DNA from: Candidatus Moraniibacteriota bacterium
GTDB lineage: Bacteria; Patescibacteriota; Minisyncoccia; Moranbacterales; UBA1568
DNA: 64,000 bases
NCBI GenBank assembly: GCA_016699875.1
Contig: CP064989.1
Coordinates: forward strand, 1,013,332-1,077,331
Direction: 5' to 3'
This document shows, in pieces, positions 2,869 to 19,102 of this stretch (position 1 is its first letter; each line of letters starts with the position of its first letter). A program made the translations under genes and the position numbers. The notes under the pieces are model-generated. The model was not told where the DNA came from. It saw only the letters and a program-made list of their open reading frames with translations, and made no database searches.

Positions 2869-5800
2869 TTGGTGAGCCTTCTCGGAGGAAATCTTGACAG
2901 TGACAGTGACCATCTGTTCGGCGACCCAAAGGTACTCGGTCTGCTCGGCAATGCGCGGGAAGACGACGGCTTCGATCCGTCCGGTCGTATCTTCGACGGT
3001 GGCGAAGTACATCGTCTTCTGGTCTTTGGTATAGGCTTTTCGGAGCGCGGAGATGACGCCGCCCACCTGCGCGATCGCGCCTTCGGAGAGCTTTTCGACT
3101 TCGTGCACGGGCGTTGCGATTTCCGCAAGATATTCTTGGTAGTCGCTTGCCGGATGATCGCTCACATAGAGTCCGAGGAGTTCTTTTTCCCACTGGAGTT
3201 TTTCGTGCTTGGTGGCGGGGGCAACCGGCGTGAGGCGGATAGCGCTCTTTTCGATCGGCATGTCGCGGAAGAGGCTCATCGAATGCGTCGCCTTAGTCTT
3301 CTCGCTGTTCTTTGAGTACAACAAAATGGTGTCGACGCTCTCAAGGAGGCTCTTGCGTTCGCCGAAGGCGTTGAGTCCGCCCACTTTCGCGAGCGCTTCG
3401 ATGGATTTTTTGTTGAGGTCTTTGGTGCGGACACGTTCGATGAAGTCGGTGAGGTCTTTGAATTTTCCGTTTTTCTTTCGCTCGCGAACGATTTCTTCGG
3501 TGACGGTCGCGCCCACATTTTTCACGGCATTGAGTCCGAATCGGACGCGCTCGACACCGTCGTCTCCGCGGATGACGGCGAATTCCTCGAAACTCTCATT
3601 GACCGATGGCGGCAAGACTTCGATACCCATGTCGCGCGTCTCGGCGACTTCGATCGAGACGCGGTCGGAGTTGCTCTGATCGCTTGTGAGCAGCGCCGCC
3701 ATAAATTCCGCCGGATAGTGCGCTTTGAGATAGGCGGTTTGGTAGCCGATGAGTCCGTAGCAGGCGGCGTGAGATCGGTTGAATCCGTAACCGGCAAAGG
3801 GCTCGATGAAGGCGAAGACTTTTTCAGCGATAGTCTTTGAGATGCCTTGCTTGACGCAACCGTCGATGAATTTGATTTTCTGTTCTTTAATGAGCTCCAA
3901 AATCTTTTTCCCCATCGCTTTGCGGAGTACATCCGCTTCGCCCAGAGTGAATCCGGCAAGATCTTGCGCGATGCGCATGACTTGTTCCTGATAGACGGCG
4001 ACGCCGTAGCTCGTGCCGAGTATGGGCTCGAGCTTTGGGTGAAGGTACTCGACGGTCTTGGTGCCGTGCTTCCCGGCGATGAAGTCCGGGATCCAGTCCA
4101 TGGGACCGGGGCGGTAGAGGGCGACCATGGCGATGATGTCTTCGAGGACGGTCGGCTTCAATTGTTTGAGGTAGCGCTTCATGCCGTTTGATTCGAGCTG
4201 GAAGACGCCGGTCGTGTGCGCTTTCTGGAGAAGAGCAAAGGTTGCTTCGTCGTCGAGCGGGAGCTTATCCATAATGTCGGCGGTCGAAACGGTGTCGGGA
4301 TTGAGTCCGAGTTTTTCGGCGAGGTGTTCGAGCTTGCCGAGCGCCTTCAAAATACGGATGGTGTCTTGAATGATGGTGAGGTTTTTGAGACCGAGGAAGT
4401 CCATTTTCAAGAGGCCGATTTTTTCGACGTAACTTGATTTGGTTGAAGAAGAGTATTGCGTCACGATGCCTTCTTTGGAACCGGAAATATTTTGAATCGG
4501 CGTGTATTCGGTGACCGGGTCTTTGGTGATGACGACGCCGCAGGCATGCATGGAGGCGTGCCGCGAGAGACCTTCTATCTTCTTGGCGACGTCGATGAGG
4601 CGTTTGGCGTCGGGGTCGCGATCGTAGAGCGCTTTGAAATCGGGCGCTTCTTGAAGTGCCTTTTCCATCGAGTGGAACTGTGGGATGAGCTTGGCGACGG
4701 TGTCGCAGAGGCTGTAGGAGAGTCCGAGGGCGCGGCCGGCGTCGCGAATCGCGGCGCGCGCCGCCATGGTTCCGAAGGTGATGATCTGTGCGACGTGGTC
4801 GTTGCCATAGCGTCGACGGACATAATTCAAGACATCGTCGCGGCGGTTGTCGGCGAAGTCCATGTCGACATCGGGCATAGAAATGCGCTCCGGATTGAGG
4901 AATCGCTCGAAGAGGAGATTGTATTTGATCGGATCCATGTTGGTGATGCCGGTCAAATAGGCGACGAAACTTCCGGCGGCGCTCCCTCTTCCGGGGCCTA
5001 CGACGATGCCTTCGTGCTTTGCCCAGTTGACGAAGTCTTGAACGATCAAGAAGTACGAGGCGAAGCCAGTTTTCTCGATCACACCGAGTTCGTACTCCAT
5101 GCGCTCGCGGTGCTGGTCGGTGATATCGGTACCGAAGCGCTTGGCAAGCCCCGCTTCGCAGAGTTCGCGCAGATAAGCTTCAGGAGTCTTGCCGTCGGGC
5201 ACGTCGAAATGCGGGAGCTGGGTTTCTCCGAGTTTGATGTGAACATCACAGCGGTCCGCGATTTTCCCGGCATTTTCGATGGCCTCCGGAATGTCCTTGA
5301 AGAATGCCTCCATGTCTTCGGGCGAACGGAGCGAGAGGTCGAGGTGTCGAAGCGAGAGTCGGTTTTCGTCGGAAACTTTTTTGTTGTCGCGGATACAAAG
5401 GAGGATATCTTGGAGATCGCTGTCTTCGGGGCGGACATAGTGCACATCGTTCGCCGCGACGAGCGGAATGCCGGTTTCTCGCGATATCTGGACAAGTCCG
5501 GTATTGGCAACAATTTGATTTTCGTAGTCGCCGTGCGGTTGGAGTTCGAGGAAGAAGTTGCCTTTGCCGAAAATGTCTTCGTATTCGAGGGCTGCTTCCC
5601 GCGCGCGCTCTTCGCTTCCGGCGATGACGAGCGACGGCACTTCGCCGGTCACCGATCCGGAAAGAGCAATGATGCCCTCATGGTATTTCCGCAAGAGTGC
5701 CTTGTCGACGCGCGCTTTGTAGTAGAAGCCCTCGATATGCGACTCGGAGATGATCTTCATGAGATTCTGGTAGCCAGCTTGTGTCTCGGCGAGAAGGACG

Positions 5801-6060
5801 AGATTGGAGCGGCGGCGGTCTTCGATCGAGACTCGGCTCCTCATATTTGCCGTCACGTAGATTTCCGCACCGATAATCGGCTTCATGTCTCGTTCTTTTG
5901 CTTTGATCGAGAGCTCGACGGCGCCATAAAGCGCGGTGTAGTCGGTGATGGCAAGTGCGGTCATGCCGAGCTCTTTGGCGCGGTCAAGGAGCGCGTCAAT
6001 GCGAGCAGGCGCGGTGAGAAGGCTATAGTGCGAGTGAACGTGGAGATGTGCAAAAGGCAT
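2824..6060 (-). CDS. dnaE: DNA polymerase III alpha subunit
   Basis: PHP domain start MPFAHLHVHSHYSLL; length 1078 aa; polymerase core and OB-fold region (MYFATVEDTTGRIEAVVFP). The ORF stops shortly after the OB fold and the tail continues in another frame (see the 2387-2868 feature). Confidence 0.93.
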   Translation of the reverse strand: MPFAHLHVHSHYSLLTAPARIDALLDRAKELGMTALAITDYTALYGAVELSIKAKERDMKPIIGAEIYVTANMRSRVSIEDRRRSNLVLLAETQAGYQNLMKIISESHIEGFYYKARVDKALLRKYHEGIIALSGSVTGEVPSLVIAGSEERAREAALEYEDIFGKGNFFLELQPHGDYENQIVANTGLVQISRETGIPLVAANDVHYVRPEDSDLQDILLCIRDNKKVSDENRLSLRHLDLSLRSPEDMEAFFKDIPEAIENAGKIADRCDVHIKLGETQLPHFDVPDGKTPEAYLRELCEAGLAKRFGTDITDQHRERMEYELGVIEKTGFASYFLIVQDFVNWAKHEGIVVGPGRGSAAGSFVAYLTGITNMDPIKYNLLFERFLNPERISMPDVDMDFADNRRDDVLNYVRRRYGNDHVAQIITFGTMAARAAIRDAGRALGLSYSLCDTVAKLIPQFHSMEKALQEAPDFKALYDRDPDAKRLIDVAKKIEGLSRHASMHACGVVITKDPVTEYTPIQNISGSKEGIVTQYSSSTKSSYVEKIGLLKMDFLGLKNLTIIQDTIRILKALGKLEHLAEKLGLNPDTVSTADIMDKLPLDDEATFALLQKAHTTGVFQLESNGMKRYLKQLKPTVLEDIIAMVALYRPGPMDWIPDFIAGKHGTKTVEYLHPKLEPILGTSYGVAVYQEQVMRIAQDLAGFTLGEADVLRKAMGKKILELIKEQKIKFIDGCVKQGISKTIAEKVFAFIEPFAGYGFNRSHAACYGLIGYQTAYLKAHYPAEFMAALLTSDQSNSDRVSIEVAETRDMGIEVLPPSVNESFEEFAVIRGDDGVERVRFGLNAVKNVGATVTEEIVRERKKNGKFKDLTDFIERVRTKDLNKKSIEALAKVGGLNAFGERKSLLESVDTILLYSKNSEKTKATHSMSLFRDMPIEKSAIRLTPVAPATKHEKLQWEKELLGLYVSDHPASDYQEYLAEIATPVHEVEKLSEGAIAQVGGVISALRKAYTKDQKTMYFATVEDTTGRIEAVVFPRIAEQTEYLWVAEQMVTVTVKISSEKAHQQSWSSAPTASRRKR

Positions 6061-11291: not shown

Positions 11292-11381
11292 TACCGATCT
11301 TTCGGCGCGATGCGGTTTCTGATATACTGAAGATACGGGTGGAAAACTTGTTTGAGGGATTGCAATACCAATACCATCGTC

Positions 11382-11945
11382 ATGGAAACGGAAAAAAAAG
11401 AAAAGACTCAATCAAGATGGTTTTTCGGGGTCTTTTTCTTTTTGGTAACTCTTTCGATTTTTGCGACTTTCTATCGGGTGTTTATTGCGAAGGACTATTT
11501 GGTGGACATAGAGGTGTCGTGTTCTCCGGAGAGGGCGGCTTGTTTTGCTCGAGATATCTGCGATACCGACGATGAGTCGTGCGGAGAGGATGATATTCCG
11601 ATTGAAACGTCATATTACAAAATCGTTGAAAGGAAAGCCTACAATTTTCCGGAGACATGCGCCTCCGGAACCCTTGATTCGCCGGAGTGTGCTGATTTAT
11701 CCTGTCGTCTGGGAGAAATAGATTGTACGGAGACCTACTGTTCCGATGAAACAGTGCCGGAAGGTGAGACCTGTGTCGGCCCGGGATTTGTCCTGGAAGA
11801 CTCCGAAGGTGCAACACTACCGAATGATTCGATGGGAGAGGGTGGTGAAGATAGCGAAGATGGTGCCGCAGGCAGTGGCACTGGCAGTGAAATTTCTCCG
11901 GAAGCGGGAATGGATGAAGAGGGTGGAGCTGTACAGATGAACTAG
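11382..11945 (+). CDS. hypothetical membrane-anchored, acidic, Cys-rich protein
   Basis: N-terminal TM helix (WFFGVFFFLVTLSIFATFYRVFI) followed by a D/E/C-rich ectodomain; no known motif. Start chosen at METEKKEK. Confidence 0.5.
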   Translation: METEKKEKTQSRWFFGVFFFLVTLSIFATFYRVFIAKDYLVDIEVSCSPERAACFARDICDTDDESCGEDDIPIETSYYKIVERKAYNFPETCASGTLDSPECADLSCRLGEIDCTETYCSDETVPEGETCVGPGFVLEDSEGATLPNDSMGEGGEDSEDGAAGSGTGSEISPEAGMDEEGGAVQMN

Positions 11946-12237
11946 GTGGATTCGGATTGATTTGACAGAATTTCTGAAATGTTTTCTCTATGGTGAAGTG
12001 GAAATATTCGCTAAACAGAAGGGAACGGTTGGGATTTTCCCGAATATAAAGGCTTTTCAAATGGACATATTTGTCCATTTTTTTTGACTTTTATTATTGA
12101 CATAAACAAATATTTATTGTAAAAAGTAAAGTTTACGAGGAATTATCATGAAGAAATCAGGATGTTTTTCTGTGGTAGGTGAGATGATTTGAAGCGAACG
12201 AGAAAGAGAAAGGGGGATAAACCTTTGGACAAAAGAA

Positions 12238-12876
12238 GTGAGTAGTCGTGATTTCATGGCTTTCATGGGGGCATTAGCGGGAGTGATTTCTCTGCTTGCT
12301 TATATTCCTTATATTTCCTCGATTATTCGAAGGAAGACTGTCCCAAGTCGAACGTCATTTTGGATATTATTCTTCGTGGGGTTGGTTACATTATTAGCAT
12401 ATAAGGGGTCTGGCGCGTCCAATACCCTTTTTTTTCTTATCGGAGATTTGGTTGGATGTTTCTTGATTGCCCTCCTGAGTCTTCTTTATGGAAAGGATGG
12501 GACGCAGACTTTTGACAAGCTTTGTTTTTTTGGAGCCATTGTGAGTTTGGGATTGTGGTTTTTCTTCCAGGAATATCCTTCGGTGGCGCTTATATCGAGC
12601 TTGTCGGTTGAGTTTGTTGCCATGATTCCTATTTTGAAAAAAGCGTACTTAAATCCGTTTGAAGAAGATATAACAACATGGCTTCTTTCTTTTGTTGCGG
12701 CAGTCATGAATATTTATGCGATAGAGACGTGGAGCTTTCTTGTTGTTCTTCTTCCGTTTTATGAGTTTGCGATTGTTGGAATGATCGTTCTGTTTCTTTC
12801 GAGAAGAAGGAAAAGCAAGGTTCCTTTGAATGACATCGCACCGCATCTAAAAATGGTTCGACTGGTAAGATATTGA
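12238..12876 (+). CDS. hypothetical polytopic membrane protein (about 6 TM helices)
   Basis: Multiple hydrophobic helices; the stop overlaps the start of the next gene by 4 nt (translational coupling). A+T-rich relative to its flanks. Confidence 0.6.
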   Translation: MSSRDFMAFMGALAGVISLLAYIPYISSIIRRKTVPSRTSFWILFFVGLVTLLAYKGSGASNTLFFLIGDLVGCFLIALLSLLYGKDGTQTFDKLCFFGAIVSLGLWFFFQEYPSVALISSLSVEFVAMIPILKKAYLNPFEEDITTWLLSFVAAVMNIYAIETWSFLVVLLPFYEFAIVGMIVLFLSRRRKSKVPLNDIAPHLKMVRLVRY

Positions 12877-14249
12877 ATATGACTGATAATGACATTGATT
12901 TGAAGGAGAGTCTAAGGAAAGAAGTCCAGAAAATATATACTCCGTTGTCTGTTGCAAAGGAAGAAATTTGGAAAAGATGGGGAAATAAAGAGCTGCAAAA
13001 GAATGTGAGTGAGTTTTTGGGCATTAAAGCTGAACGATTTTTTAAAGAAAGTCCGGTCGCCTGTTTGGGGAGGAATATTGTGAGTCCTACTATGGAGTTT
13101 AGCTATTTCTTGGAATTAGCCAAAGAGATAGATCTTGAACCTCTGGTTATAGAACATGTTAAAGATAAGTTTGTTACAGAAAACCCGGATAAGTACTATT
13201 TAGCGAAATTGTATTTTTACAATAAGAACGGAAGGAAGAATGATAGGAACATTGACACTGATTTTATCAACGCCATTGATTTCAATAAATATCAAGGAGA
13301 AAAAATATGTAACATAAATACAATGTGGGGAGAGAATCTTGTTGATTTTCAACATAGAATTTCTCATGACTTATTTCCTAATCACTGGAGGAAAAGTATC
13401 GATATATCGGAAATACTGGATTTAAATCACAAGGGGTTGAGTCAGTGTTACGATAAATATCTAGCTCTTTTTATCTTCGGAGGCGTGTTGTTCGAAAACT
13501 TCTTGTTAAGTAAAAACATCAAGGACTTTACACATAGAGTTGTGGTCCCCGCATTTGCCAAACTTGAAAAACTTTTTGGCATTAAGCCTCTTATTGTTCC
13601 TTTATCTTCAATAGAGGATCAGGATGACTTGTATTGGTGGTGTTATCCAACTTTAATTAAAGATGATATTATGGAACATATAACAATTGGTGGAGCAAAG
13701 TACAGGAAGATACATCACGGAGAGTTTAAGAATGCTCTTATAAAGCTTAAACCATCAAGGATAGTACCAACTGGAGTGGGTGTTTTTGCTGTTAGAAACC
13801 TAAGCAAGGGAATTATAATTGGTGATGTAAGGTTTTTAAGCGAAGACTTTTTTCTTACTCGAAATGACTATGAAAAGGTAGACCAGGAATCAAGGGGTGT
13901 AATAAAAAACTTCTGCATCCCAACTCCTGACGGTTTCTTTGCTCCTAAAGATGTTAATTATCTCTCTATCCCTTGGTATATCAATCATTCTTGTGATGGC
14001 AATGTTGGGTATGATAAAAATGGAAATTTTGTTACCATAAAAAACATTAAAAAGGATGACGAGCTCTCCTACGATTATGGATTAGCTGTGTCGGATCCTG
14101 GTTTTAAATTATATTGTAAGTGTAGATCAAAAAAATGCAGGAAAGTCATTACCGGGAATGATTGGAAGAATGTTGAATATCGAAAGAAAAACTATTCGCA
14201 TATGACCCCAGAGCTCAAGGAACTCATAGAGAAAACATATAAAGATTAA
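12873..14249 (+). CDS. SET-domain protein (putative protein-lysine methyltransferase) with an unrecognised ~290-aa N-terminal domain
   Basis: C-terminal SET signatures: GVGVFAVRNLSKGIIIGDV (GxG region), INHSCDGN (the NHSCxPN motif), ELSYDYG (the ELxxDY motif) and post-SET cysteines CKCRSKKC. The N-terminal 290 aa is K/N/I-rich with no motif I recognise. Confidence 0.75.
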   Translation: MNMTDNDIDLKESLRKEVQKIYTPLSVAKEEIWKRWGNKELQKNVSEFLGIKAERFFKESPVACLGRNIVSPTMEFSYFLELAKEIDLEPLVIEHVKDKFVTENPDKYYLAKLYFYNKNGRKNDRNIDTDFINAIDFNKYQGEKICNINTMWGENLVDFQHRISHDLFPNHWRKSIDISEILDLNHKGLSQCYDKYLALFIFGGVLFENFLLSKNIKDFTHRVVVPAFAKLEKLFGIKPLIVPLSSIEDQDDLYWWCYPTLIKDDIMEHITIGGAKYRKIHHGEFKNALIKLKPSRIVPTGVGVFAVRNLSKGIIIGDVRFLSEDFFLTRNDYEKVDQESRGVIKNFCIPTPDGFFAPKDVNYLSIPWYINHSCDGNVGYDKNGNFVTIKNIKKDDELSYDYGLAVSDPGFKLYCKCRSKKCRKVITGNDWKNVEYRKKNYSHMTPELKELIEKTYKD

Positions 14250-14255
14250 AGTTAT

Positions 14256-15932
14256 ATGGCATACAATTTGGTGACAAATATAGAATCTTGTTATGTATAT
14301 ATAAAAGATGCTCCTTTCGGTTTGATCTATTACTCGCATATTCCAACAGGAATTGCAGCGTTGTCTATAGGATTGTTTGTCTTTTACAGCAACAGAAAGT
14401 TTTTACTGAACAAGCTACTCTTTCTTTTCTCCCTCACCTTTTTTTTCTGGTCATTTGCTGATCTCGTTACGTGGACGTATAGCTACAATAGCGTCTACAC
14501 GATGTTTGCGTGGTCGTTATTGGGCGTTACAAATGTTCTACTTTTTGTCGTGAGCCTATATTTCACGTATGTCTTTCTCGATAGGAGAGATGTAACATCT
14601 TCGTTAAAATTGATTTTTGGCGCATTATTGCTTCCAGCTATTGTAATTACACCTACCTATTTTAACCTGGGCGAATTTAGTAATATTGATTGCTCTCCAA
14701 TTGAGGGGGATTACTTTAATTACTACCAGTACTTCATTAATGGTTTAGTGGTTATATGGATTGTTTTCCTATCATTTAGGAGGTATAGATTAGCGGGAAA
14801 AGAGCTTAAGAAACAAATAATGCTTTTTTCCTTTGGCATGAATTTTTTCTTAATGCTGTTTCTTTTGGCAGGGGTTTTGGCTCCTTACCTGTATGGACTT
14901 GGTGTTGTAAATGATTACAGAATTGAGTCTATGGGCATGTTTGGAATGCCCATTTTTCTTGGCCTCCTTGCGTACCTCATCGTTCGATATCAGGCATTCA
15001 ATGTAAAAATTATTGCAACACAAGCATTAGTGGTGACACTGGCGATATTGATTGGCTCACAGCTTTTCTTTATCAGGTCGCAGATAAATTTCATACTTAC
15101 ATCAATTACATTTCTCCTGTCTGTTCTCTTTGGCATTCTCCTCATCCGTTCTGTGAAGAATGAAATTCGACGGAAGGAAGAGCTGCAGATTGTGACGGAC
15201 AAATTGGCGGCGGCGAATGTGGAGCTCAAGCGTCTTGATCAGTCGAAGCCGGAGTTCATTTCGATCGCGTCGCATCAGTTGCGGACGCCATTGACGGCAA
15301 TCAAGGGATTTGTCTCGCTTTTGCTTGAAGGATCGTACGGCAAGGTGCCGGCACCGATCACGGATGTACTCGATAAGATTTATACGGCAAATGATCGAAT
15401 CGTGCACTTGGTGGAAGATTTGCTCAACATTTCCCGTATGGAATCGGGGCGGCTCAAGTACGAGTATGCAGAGGTGAATATTCCGGAATTCTTGGATGAA
15501 CTTCGCGATACGTTTGCGATCGTTGCCAAGAAGAAGGGTTTGGAGTTGACATTTGAGACGGTGACAGACTCGATCAAGCCGGCATGGGTGGATCGACAGA
15601 AGGCCTTCGAAGTAGTCTCGAATCTTATCGACAATGCGCTCAAGTATACGGCTGCCGGGAGTGTCCGGGTTCGCACGGAGGATGCGAGCGGTTTCATCCG
15701 TATCTCCGTGACGGATACAGGCGTTGGCATTGATTCCGATATGATGTCCGCCTTGTTTCAGAAGTTCTCTCGCGGCAAGGAGAGCGGCAAGATGCACGTG
15801 AGCGGCACCGGTCTCGGACTCTATGTCGGGAAGTCCATGATCGAGGCGCAAGGCGGCCACATCGGCGTCACCTCCGAAGGCACCGGCAAAGGCTCGACCT
15901 TCTTCGTGGAATTACCGGTGAAGCAAGGGTAA
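14256..15932 (+). CDS. sensor histidine kinase with N-terminal multi-TM (7-8 helix) sensor region
   Basis: H-box FISIASHQLRTPLTAIKGF; N/G boxes (NLIDNALKYT, DTGVGI, GTGLGLYV). About 300 aa of consecutive TM helices precede the kinase core. No response regulator adjacent. Confidence 0.88.
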   Translation: MAYNLVTNIESCYVYIKDAPFGLIYYSHIPTGIAALSIGLFVFYSNRKFLLNKLLFLFSLTFFFWSFADLVTWTYSYNSVYTMFAWSLLGVTNVLLFVVSLYFTYVFLDRRDVTSSLKLIFGALLLPAIVITPTYFNLGEFSNIDCSPIEGDYFNYYQYFINGLVVIWIVFLSFRRYRLAGKELKKQIMLFSFGMNFFLMLFLLAGVLAPYLYGLGVVNDYRIESMGMFGMPIFLGLLAYLIVRYQAFNVKIIATQALVVTLAILIGSQLFFIRSQINFILTSITFLLSVLFGILLIRSVKNEIRRKEELQIVTDKLAAANVELKRLDQSKPEFISIASHQLRTPLTAIKGFVSLLLEGSYGKVPAPITDVLDKIYTANDRIVHLVEDLLNISRMESGRLKYEYAEVNIPEFLDELRDTFAIVAKKKGLELTFETVTDSIKPAWVDRQKAFEVVSNLIDNALKYTAAGSVRVRTEDASGFIRISVTDTGVGIDSDMMSALFQKFSRGKESGKMHVSGTGLGLYVGKSMIEAQGGHIGVTSEGTGKGSTFFVELPVKQG

Positions 15933-16198: not shown

Positions 16199-16228
16199 CC
16201 CGGCTCAACAGAAGAGTCGGGTTTTTTG
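16199..16228 (+). terminator. orphan intrinsic terminator in the HK-MFS intergenic region
   Basis: cccggctc/gagtcggg stem (one G-U) followed by ttttttg. It lies 265 nt after the HK stop and 50 nt before the MFS start. Confidence 0.45.
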
Positions 16229-18538: not shown

Positions 18539-18658
18539 AAATGTAGCTCACTATGTTTATGGTCGACAGCTTGCATGTTTCCTTATTGGGACCTAGAGTG
18601 AAAGGAATGTACCTGTGCGATAAGGCAAAGGGGCGATAGGATGTGTAGCCGTATATTT

Positions 18659-19102
18659 ATGGCACGAGTATTATTGGTTGAAGATGATCCGATGATCTCG
18701 GAGATTTATCAGCGGAAGTTCTCCGCTGCCGGGTTTGAAGTGCGCATTGCCGCTTCAGGGAAGGCTGTTTTGGATATTTTGCGGACAGAATCATTCGACC
18801 TGGTGCTACTCGATATTGTCTTACCGGAGATGAGCGGAATGGAGATTTTGGAAAAGCTTCGCAATCCGAAAAACGGCTACAATTCCGATATCAAGATCGT
18901 GATGTTTAGTAGTTTGAGCGAGAAGGATGACCGGGATCGGGCCGTAGCTCTTGGTGCGAGCGGCTTTATCTCGAAAACGGAAGTTTCTCCCTCCGAACTG
19001 ATTGTTGAGGTGACGCGATTTTTGCATCAGTTTGAAGCGCAAGCAAGCAGTACGGATCGGAAAGGGATATCCATCTCAAACGTCCCGAATATATCAGCGT
19101 GA
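18659..19102 (+). CDS. single-domain response-regulator receiver (CheY-like) protein
   Basis: VLLVEDDPMISEIY...LVLLDIVLPEMSGMEIL...KIVMFSS; no output domain. Confidence 0.8.
   Translation: MARVLLVEDDPMISEIYQRKFSAAGFEVRIAASGKAVLDILRTESFDLVLLDIVLPEMSGMEILEKLRNPKNGYNSDIKIVMFSSLSEKDDRDRAVALGASGFISKTEVSPSELIVEVTRFLHQFEAQASSTDRKGISISNVPNISA

Follow-up and report, generated by a model that had tools for sequence, protein, structure and literature searches.

SET proteins of bacteria have been reviewed mainly as effectors, with SET genes of free-living bacteria also noted (PMC3980110). For instance, NUE/cpnSET of Chlamydia and RomA/LegAS4 of Legionella carry a SET catalytic domain, are secreted into eukaryotic hosts and methylate histones (PMC3980110). 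Here, we describe a gene (12879-14249, + strand) found in a 64,000-nucleotide stretch of the genome of a Candidatus Moraniibacteriota bacterium (contig CP064989.1, positions 1,013,332 to 1,077,331; hereafter the window), a member of the Patescibacteria or Candidate Phyla Radiation (CPR). It also encodes a bacterial protein with a SET catalytic domain, here fused to an N-terminal domain of an unannotated family (hereafter the N domain). However, unlike the effectors, this protein lacks an export signal, its gene is part of a kinase operon, and the hosts of its lineage are probably prokaryotes. A known enzyme fold appears at this locus within an architecture and a system context that are new and recurrent, together with a protein family that is also new and of considerable size. 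From its gene neighbourhoods, this family is predicted to be a dedicated companion of a membrane sensory module in Patescibacteria.

The SET half resembles the eukaryotic post-SET methyltransferases (KMT2A/MLL1, KMT2D/MLL4, ASH1L and SETD2), its GxG, NHSC, ELxYDY and CxCxxxxC motifs aligning residue for residue with those of MLL1. However, the window protein is only 23-24% identical to MLL-type enzymes, lacks eukaryotic accessory domains and WRAD-type partners, has an extra conserved C-terminal tail (GNDWK plus two helices) and is not filed in KMT2/SET1. Its SET domain is fused to a prokaryote-specific N domain inside a two-component-system operon of a CPR bacterium, which makes a histone substrate implausible. 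Much closer are free-standing SET proteins of about 170-195 amino acids (aa) belonging to the same sequence subtype, subtype A (e.g. P0386-P0388 and entries of Moranbacteria, Magasanikbacteria and Desulfobaccales), which are 62-63% identical over the SET half. The closest of these fill the same slot between an N-domain gene and a kinase gene; there they are separate genes, whereas the window encodes one polypeptide.

The genetic organization recalls accessory proteins of sensor kinases and adaptation by covalent modification, as in CheR/CheB with chemoreceptors and PII/GlnD with NtrB. A small cytoplasmic protein is encoded beside a membrane sensor kinase, is probably co-transcribed with it and is coupled to an S-adenosylmethionine (SAM)-dependent methyltransferase. 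There is, however, no homology to CheR/CheB or PII/GlnD and the likeness is one of analogy only: CheR is a Rossmann-fold glutamate O-methyltransferase, whereas the window enzyme would be a SET N-methyltransferase. As for the kinase, its seven-transmembrane (7TM) half is homologous to those of kinases beside other N-domain genes that carry precomputed matches to HisKA_7TM (PF16927), although no PF16927 match was obtained when the window kinase itself was scanned directly against Pfam. HisKA_7TM is listed merely as a sensor domain of unknown ligand (PMC5847659), and the literature that we found on it holds nothing on ligand or partner proteins. Our literature search found no paper combining SET with Patescibacteria, and none of the best matches linked SET or lysine methylation to a histidine-kinase module.

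Domain architecture of the fusion protein

The open reading frame (ORF) at 12873-14249 on the + strand, given in the preliminary description of this DNA, is present in the ORF list of the window, where its start was set mechanically at the TTG at 12873. The ATG at 12879, two codons downstream, is likely to be the true start, since the resulting 456-aa product is identical to that of a gene called on an independent public contig (L001) and since a relative that is 98% identical (P0001) has the same length (456 aa). The fusion is found in three distinct sequences, namely the window and L001 (identical), P0001 (98%) and P0002 (68%), which rules out an assembly artefact as its source. Its parts, all on the + strand, are as follows (pLDDT, predicted local distance difference test).

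12879-14249: N-domain-SET fusion gene, 456 aa plus stop
12879-13682: N domain (residues 1-268), unannotated alpha/beta family, from the 106-sequence alignment A1 and the AlphaFold2 model
13683-13715: flexible inter-domain linker (residues 269-279), with pLDDT <50 at residues 270-278
13773-14081: SET catalytic core (residues 299-401), from Pfam, the MLL1 alignment and Foldseek
13773-13793: SET motif GVGVFAV (residues 299-305)
13983-14003: SET motif NHSCDGN (residues 369-375)
14061-14081: SET motif ELSYDYG (residues 395-401)
14115-14138: post-SET cysteine cluster CKCRSKKC (residues 413-420), aligned to CNCGAKKC of MLL1
14139-14246: C-terminal helical tail with the GNDWK motif (residues 421-456), from subtype conservation and AlphaFold2 helices

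All SET motifs quoted in the preliminary description are present, and sequence profile and predicted structure agree that the C-terminal half is a genuine SET plus post-SET methyltransferase domain. The Pfam SET profile (PF00856) matches over its full length (1-105) with 39.2 bits against a gathering cutoff of 22.4 (E 9.9e-10). Among PDB sequences searched by phmmer, the SET domain of MLL1/KMT2A is the best match (E 7e-8), KMT2D, KMT2C and ASH1L being also at the top but weaker. The pairings with MLL1 are GVGVFA/GRGLFC, INHSCDGN/INHSCEPN, ELSYDY/ELTYDY and CKCRSKKCRK/CNCGAKKCRK. Furthermore, Foldseek with the AlphaFold2 model retrieved 126 PDB chains at E<=1e-3, every one of them a SET methyltransferase, so that the NHSC/ELxxDY region does adopt a SET fold in the model. 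The top match is MLL4 (E 1.7e-7, probability 1.0). Template modelling (TM) scores are kept at a modest level, about 0.46 when normalised to the target, by two low-confidence loops of the SET region (318-323 and 356-366).

The SAM-binding and catalytic motifs are intact (GVGVFAV 299-305, INHSCDGN 368-375, ELSYDYG 395-401), and the CxCxxxxC post-SET cluster is present together with the cysteine of NHSC (C372), forming a predicted zinc site. The tail helices (432-441 and 444-455) are modelled at pLDDT 85-92, and the DWK-motif tail is conserved in SET subtypes A and B. Hence, the SET half is predicted to work like a post-SET lysine methyltransferase. Its Phe/Tyr-switch position is occupied by Tyr (ELSYDY), as in MLL1. 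Work on DIM-5 and MLL1 reportedly indicates that Tyr at this position favours lower methylation states, which by analogy suggests low methylation states for the window enzyme. Over its full length, the model has a mean pLDDT of 81.8 and a predicted TM-score (pTM) of 0.59.

The protein is predicted to be soluble and cytoplasmic because it has no hydrophobic segment and its N-terminus is hydrophilic. No signal peptide and no transmembrane segment was detected (maximum 19-aa hydropathy 1.42), type III/IV secretion signals being not excludable from sequence.

The N-terminal part had been described as a domain of about 290 aa matching nothing recognisable. An unrecognised domain is indeed there, but it comprises about 268 aa, followed by the disordered linker. 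It has no match in Pfam, NCBIfam or PADLOC and insignificant ones only in PHROGs. Scans of the whole protein and of a free-standing N-domain protein against these four collections found SET as the sole family. PADLOC returned no family at E<=1 for the window protein and nothing significant for the two proteins together, with one weak match (E 0.027). No recurrent family appeared when 106 members were scanned singly against Pfam at E<=1, the N-domain profile had no match among PDB sequences, and Foldseek of the N-domain model (pLDDT 91.7, pTM 0.90) against PDB and BFVD gave nothing significant. In both libraries, the fold matches below threshold point to nucleotide-binding enzymes of the HUP class (best E 0.026-0.12, TM about 0.3).

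Nevertheless, although it belongs to no curated family, the N domain is not an orphan but a member of a large family. A homology search with the window protein gave 134 proteins, most of them free-standing (about 255-290 aa, typically about 265 aa), mostly from Patescibacteria and spanning query residues from about 10 to 265 at 35-60% identity. The 106-member profile, built from alignment A1 with the window sequence first (P0001 scoring E 3.4e-99), was searched against 1.84 billion representatives and matched 1,002 clusters (50% identity) at E<=1e-3, with 525 scoring below 1e-30. No relatives were found in 2.9 million viral contigs, 50,697 phage records and 72,556 plasmids, and a phage, plasmid or viral origin was rejected accordingly. 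The possibility that the N domain is hidden in other SET proteins with unknown N-termini (P0096, P0097 and the DUF4760 and FRG fusions) was rejected on comparison.

The conserved motifs of the family are IYTPLSVAKEEIWKRW (19-34), DKFVxxNxDKY (96-106), GVLFENF (202-208) and KPLIVPL (236-242). About 20 polar or aromatic residues are near-invariant in alignment A1: Y20, T21, K27, E29, R33, W34, R65, E73, E92, D96, K97, N102, K105, T148, H158, H159, D175, Y191, E206, N207, K236 and Y256. The window N domain keeps all of them, and P237 too, except H158, which is replaced by Q. Several lie at the C-terminal ends of predicted beta strands.

Some members have further peculiarities. One (L070, 5995-7170) has a C-terminal extension of about 130 aa with an HEMLH (HExxH-like) motif, and another (P0153) a Cys-rich one of 175 aa with a CxxCxxxCC motif, neither with a Pfam match. 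Paired N-domain genes occur back to back in L008 (5998-7559), L019 (1026-2628), L020, L024 and L044 (1119-2651), and about 480 nucleotides (nt) apart in L065 (4640-6771).

Association with a 7TM kinase module

Relatives of the N domain were found in 187 species genomes, from which 80 loci of species-representative genomes were taken, 74 of them with enough downstream sequence. Six-frame ORFs of these loci were scored by phmmer with parts of the window proteins as queries. A same-strand kinase gene directly follows the N-domain gene, or an intervening SET gene, in 56 of the 74 loci, and a further one (L067), passed over by the gap filter, brings the total to 57/74. Where the two genes are directly adjacent, the gap ranges from a few to a few tens of nt. 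In their 7TM halves, these kinases show homology to the corresponding half of the window kinase (E 1e-30 to 1e-87). The kinase was directly downstream in all four contexts considered first (window/L001, the fused P0005 and P0006, and the free-standing P0038), two of which have a precomputed PF16927 match in the kinase, and the same arrangement also occurs in metagenomic contexts.

In the window, the fusion gene is the middle one of three tightly packed genes. The stop codon of the upstream membrane-protein gene (M212) ends 2 nt before the ATG at 12879, the kinase gene starts 6 nt after the SET stop codon, and the trio is bracketed by two terminator-like hairpins. The features concerned, all on the + strand, are listed below (HMM, hidden Markov model).

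11352-11945: Cys-rich protein of the C4 family (see below) with an N-terminal membrane anchor; E 4.9e-37 with a 34-ORF HMM, no Pfam match
12059-12080: terminator-like hairpin 5' of the three-gene unit, 9-bp stem plus T-run, pattern match only
12238-12876: M212, 212-aa multi-pass membrane protein with about six hydrophobic segments, no Pfam or NCBIfam match
14256-15932: histidine kinase (Pfam HisKA, E 2.9e-17; HATPase_c, E 1.2e-23)
14256-15215: 7TM sensor half of the kinase, seven hydrophobic segments
15216-15932: HisKA/HATPase_c catalytic half of the kinase (Pfam)
16199-16221: terminator-like hairpin 3' of the kinase gene, 8-bp stem with 6 GC pairs and a T-run, pattern match only
18641-19102: receiver-only response regulator (Pfam Response_reg, E 1.2e-24), no output domain

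Downstream of the kinase gene lie genes for a major facilitator superfamily (MFS) transporter, a tRNA-Arg, a glycosyltransferase, the receiver-only response regulator and aspartyl-tRNA synthetase (AspRS). AspRS shares 60-64% identity with proteins of Candidatus Moranbacteria and Parcubacteria and up to 91% with metagenomic ones, which places the window in a Patescibacteria genome. The receiver-only regulator is the likely cognate partner of the kinase. Genes with one or two receiver domains (REC or REC-REC) also follow the kinase in L002, L067, L088 and the context of P0389. The regulators of the module are receiver-only or REC-REC proteins without DNA-binding output (window 18641-19102, L088 3649-4452, L067 8498-9364). 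Since they have no output domain, the output of the module is not obviously transcriptional.

A natural fusion links the membrane protein to the N domain. Over 176 aa, M212 shares 36% identity (E 2e-24) with the first 227 residues of P0179 (L088, 348-1796). In this protein an M212 homolog is fused to an N domain, and its gene is followed by those of a kinase and then a REC-REC protein. As a Rosetta-stone fusion, P0179 ties membrane protein, N domain and kinase into one module and would place the N domain at the membrane. Two repeats of the 'IP.I...(R/K)K..P' type in the M212/P0179 membrane protein are, by eye, reminiscent of PQ-loop proteins.

Two further families travel with the N domain. C3, a multi-pass membrane protein of about 203 aa with the motifs D..(L/I)(Y/W)P and RHGRF, is encoded on the same strand directly upstream of N-domain genes in 49 loci (HMM; e.g. 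L077 5337-5945, L089 641-1174). C4, a membrane-anchored Cys-rich protein of about 136 aa with the motif 'KDY...CDP..E.CF', is encoded on the same strand directly upstream of the module in 47 related loci plus the window (e.g. L059 5597-6004, L089 2-370). Moreover, a second upstream membrane family, C11, takes the place of C3 on the same strand in 10 loci. None of C3, C4 and C11 has a Pfam match. M212 fills the C3 slot in the window but is not detectably related to C3; homology to C3 or C11 was rejected (hhalign probability <1%). Downstream of the kinase, a NUDIX hydrolase gene recurs in 15 loci (HMM; e.g. L080 9086-9580, L052 6230-6733, L090 603-1070), and in a Moranbacteria genome such a gene comes after a free-standing SET gene of subtype A.

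The base composition (GC content) of the window is mosaic in this region. A low-GC patch at about 11946-15215 (GC dipping to 0.34-0.41 against a window mean of 0.49) covers the membrane-protein gene, the N-domain-SET gene and only the 7TM half of the kinase gene, with a boundary near 15215. GC at third codon positions is 0.41 in the membrane-protein gene (12238-12876), and 0.36 and 0.33 in the N-domain and SET parts. Within the kinase gene it rises from 0.43 (7TM half) to 0.68 (catalytic half), and the flanking genes have 0.47-0.57. Furthermore, across 57 loci, identity to the window N domain tracks identity to the 7TM half of the window kinase (Spearman 0.54, p 1e-5) and does not correlate with identity to its catalytic half (Spearman 0.14, p 0.31), a comparison that uses a single reference sequence and membrane regions with a compositional bias of their own. 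The mosaic boundary and the 7TM-only correlation are suggestive of an exchange of the sensor side (membrane protein, N-domain-SET protein and 7TM region) as a cassette, by recombination inside the kinase gene, as would be expected if the sensor-side parts work together.

SET, GNAT and polyamine genes at N-domain loci

A SET gene is fused to, or adjoins, the N-domain gene in 17 of the 74 loci. It lies most often between the N-domain gene and the kinase gene (L015, L038, L043, L046, L063, L068, L074) and in other loci just upstream of the N-domain gene (L028, L031, L060, L075). These module-linked SET domains fall into at least three sequence subtypes with differing indels and tails: subtype A (window, P0002), subtype B (e.g. 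L068, L075) and subtype C (e.g. L002/P0006, L073, P0005, P0010). N-domain fusions are known for subtypes A and C, and all module-linked SETs keep NHSC and the post-SET cysteines. When the N domains are placed on a neighbour-joining tree (no support values), members with a fused SET, an adjacent SET or no SET are intermixed. The window clade has the SET-less L006 as its sister and lies beside P0005, a subtype-C fusion. Since at least three subtypes are scattered over this tree, SET domains have been recruited repeatedly.

A search with the SET half showed that subtype A is mostly a free-standing protein of about 170-195 aa present in many lineages. The closest relatives of the window SET are 62-63% identical over the whole SET half, and the SET of L089 is among the closest three (63%). 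In L089 the genes are ordered C4, C3, N-domain, SET and kinase; the start codon of the SET gene overlaps the stop codon of the N-domain gene, and the 7TM half of the kinase is 53% identical to that of the window, the highest value among full-length matches. Likewise, P0388 (63%) and P0389 (52%) lie between a gene for a 265-269-aa protein and a kinase gene. As the closest SETs occur in this split arrangement, the window gene arose by fusion of two neighbours, with loss of the stop codon between them.

A short subtype-A variant (L012 1942-2379, L015 6828-7265, L046 6767-7213; motif E(E/F)TIDVE) has TIDV in place of YDY and thus no catalytic tyrosine, although NHSC and the post-SET cysteines are retained; the variant may be non-canonical or have no activity. 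Two subtype-A proteins without an N domain (P0096, P0097) have hydrophobic N-terminal regions that appear by eye to be membrane-anchored, and other subtype-A SETs may therefore also act at the membrane.

SET is not the only enzyme with which the N domain is combined. A GNAT acetyltransferase is fused to the N-terminus of the N domain in L062 (5455-6786), P0128, P0137 and P0152. Thus, the N domain is repeatedly joined to what are, by their family assignment, primary-amine-modifying enzymes (SET and GNAT). Besides, in 13 of 82 loci a gene for S-adenosylmethionine decarboxylase (AdoMetDC; PF02675, E 1.6e-23) precedes the module on its own strand, at a distance of about 1.4 kb, and none is found in the 64-kb window. 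Polyamine enzymes precede the N-domain gene in four kinase-less loci of genomes not labelled CPR, which belong to distantly related lineages, with the following gene orders.

L044: AdoMetDC, spermidine synthase (PF01564, E 2e-16), N-domain, N-domain, C3; polyamine enzymes at 3-1109
L047: AdoMetDC (5439-5861), N-domain, C3
L071: AdoMetDC (329-676), C4-like protein, D..LYP-type membrane protein, N-domain
L056: saccharopine-dehydrogenase-type enzyme (3899-5317, E 7e-34), D..LYP-type membrane protein, N-domain

The membrane proteins of L071 and L056 were assigned by eye, having been missed by the C3 HMM. The saccharopine-dehydrogenase-type family includes homospermidine synthase. Another polyamine-synthesis gene lies near the N-domain gene of L004 (3933-4343).

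Proposed function and alternatives

We tentatively propose, while regarding the matter as far from settled, as the most likely reading, that the window protein serves a 7TM sensor-kinase module as an accessory subunit, located in the cytoplasm close to the membrane, and that its SET domain methylates an amine on one of the module's components. Besides the 7TM histidine kinase, this module would comprise a small multi-pass membrane protein and response regulators of the receiver-only type. Through its N domain, the protein would dock at the membrane's inner face, either on the complex of kinase and membrane protein or next to it. The SET domain, using SAM, would then methylate a lysine of a module component, the candidate acceptors being the kinase, the regulator, the membrane partner and the N domain itself, and this methylation layer could modulate signalling. 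That the N-terminal domain may define the substrate, as first suggested in the preliminary description, is plausible, and the recurrent independent fusions and adjacencies with SET and GNAT fit this idea.

Several observations weigh against this proposal. About 77% of N-domain genes have no SET nearby, so that the N domain must have a function of its own, and its conservation pattern, as seen in the alignment and the model, looks more like that of an enzyme or a ligand pocket than that of a passive adaptor. The relative orientation of the N and SET domains is undefined in the full-length model, given its low pTM. Domain identities, intact SET motifs, operon-like packing and recurrent synteny and fusions are observed, whereas docking, the methyl acceptor and an effect on kinase output are inferred. 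The synteny in Patescibacteria could partly reflect shared ancestry rather than selection. In addition, most loci from genomes without a CPR label lack the kinase. Such loci account for 12 of the 17 without a kinase (Nitrospirae, Syntrophobacteraceae, Thermodesulfovibrionales, Desulfobulbaceae, Gastranaerophilales and others), and several of them have polyamine-synthesis genes upstream and a membrane protein alongside. In kinase-less loci without a CPR label, a small divergently transcribed gene (about 110-120 aa) is also seen upstream of the N-domain gene (L017 5406-5762, L047 5008-5364, L062 4935-5267); by eye its product is of the XRE helix-turn-helix type and may be an alternative regulator.

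These loci lead to the main alternative explanation, which we consider unlikely but worth stating, in which the N domain is an enzyme or a ligand-binder for a primary-amine compound, for example a polyamine or a polyamine-modified molecule. SET would N-methylate and GNAT would N-acetylate this same substrate, the membrane protein would transport or anchor it, and the kinase, where present, would sense or regulate the process. The upstream AdoMetDC genes in 13/82 loci, the polyamine enzymes preceding the N-domain gene in L044, L047, L071 and L056 and the recurrent GNAT fusions (L062, P0128, P0137, P0152) all point in this direction, as do the many invariant acidic, aromatic and basic residues of the N domain at strand ends and the sub-threshold fold matches toward HUP-class enzymes. 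However, these fold matches are insignificant, the linkage is confined to a minority of loci, where part of it may be inherited synteny, and an AdoMetDC gene is missing from the window. Moreover, we know of no SET enzyme that methylates a small molecule, SET enzymes being known to us only as protein methyltransferases, and the pairing with a kinase in 77% of loci would be left unexplained. A broader formulation appears doubtful too, if somewhat less so: the N domain would be an integral partner of 7TM kinases across Patescibacteria that recruits SET (three subtypes) and GNAT, with methylation and acetylation forming a CheR-like covalent layer of regulation or adaptation on the sensor or, alternatively, with the system sensing or handling polyamine-type amines and SET acting on a non-protein amine.

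As a rule, CPR bacteria live attached to hosts, and these hosts are likely to be prokaryotes without histones. The first of these facts could favour a secreted effector, i.e. a SET enzyme exported by an episymbiotic CPR bacterium to methylate host proteins, with the N domain as targeting device, whereas the second speaks against it. The best structural matches of the SET half are eukaryotic histone methyltransferases, and bacterial SET effectors are documented (PMC3980110). The preliminary description had also set the protein among the sporadic SETs of bacteria, of which the described examples are mostly from host-associated bacteria or act as effectors. The implied framing as a possible effector is not supported: the protein has neither signal peptide nor transmembrane segment, its gene forms a tight three-gene unit with those of a membrane protein and a histidine kinase, and the N-domain family occurs mostly without SET and accompanies a 7TM histidine kinase. 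In addition, the same SET subtype is widespread as a free-standing bacterial protein, including in free-living lineages such as Desulfobaccales. We therefore hold export to a host to be extremely improbable. Hardly more credible is a role in defence or conflict, in which the low-GC cassette would be a mobile immunity module with SET as effector and the N domain as sensor. Such a role could draw on the GC dip and the mosaic boundary inside the kinase gene, and on subtype-A SETs fused to FRG (P0103; PADLOC candidate PDC-S15, E 2.6e-53) or DUF4760. However, the PDC-S15 match is limited to the FRG domain of the distant P0103, while PADLOC gives nothing significant for either the window protein or the free-standing N-domain protein. 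The genomic contexts of the FRG- and DUF4760-type relatives are uninformative, N-domain relatives are absent from the viral, phage and plasmid collections searched, and the neighbourhood is one of conserved housekeeping synteny rather than a variable island.

What SET enzymes do inside bacteria is poorly understood; secreted effectors that imitate the histone methyltransferases of the host have drawn most of the work. In the present case, SET is tied to a specific endogenous context by fusion, by adjacency and by recruitment that was repeated and independent. This context is a membrane sensor-kinase module conserved across reduced CPR genomes. Few signalling systems are retained in these genomes, and those that are retained are probably important for the host-attached lifestyle. 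Our analysis also brings together at least 1,000 clusters as one large unannotated family, for which the structure prediction is confident and Foldseek finds nothing significant in PDB, and it adds two further unannotated membrane-protein families that travel with the N domain. Moreover, it yields a short list of directly testable candidate substrates. If the kinase or its partners are indeed methylated, this would represent a new type of covalent control of two-component signalling.

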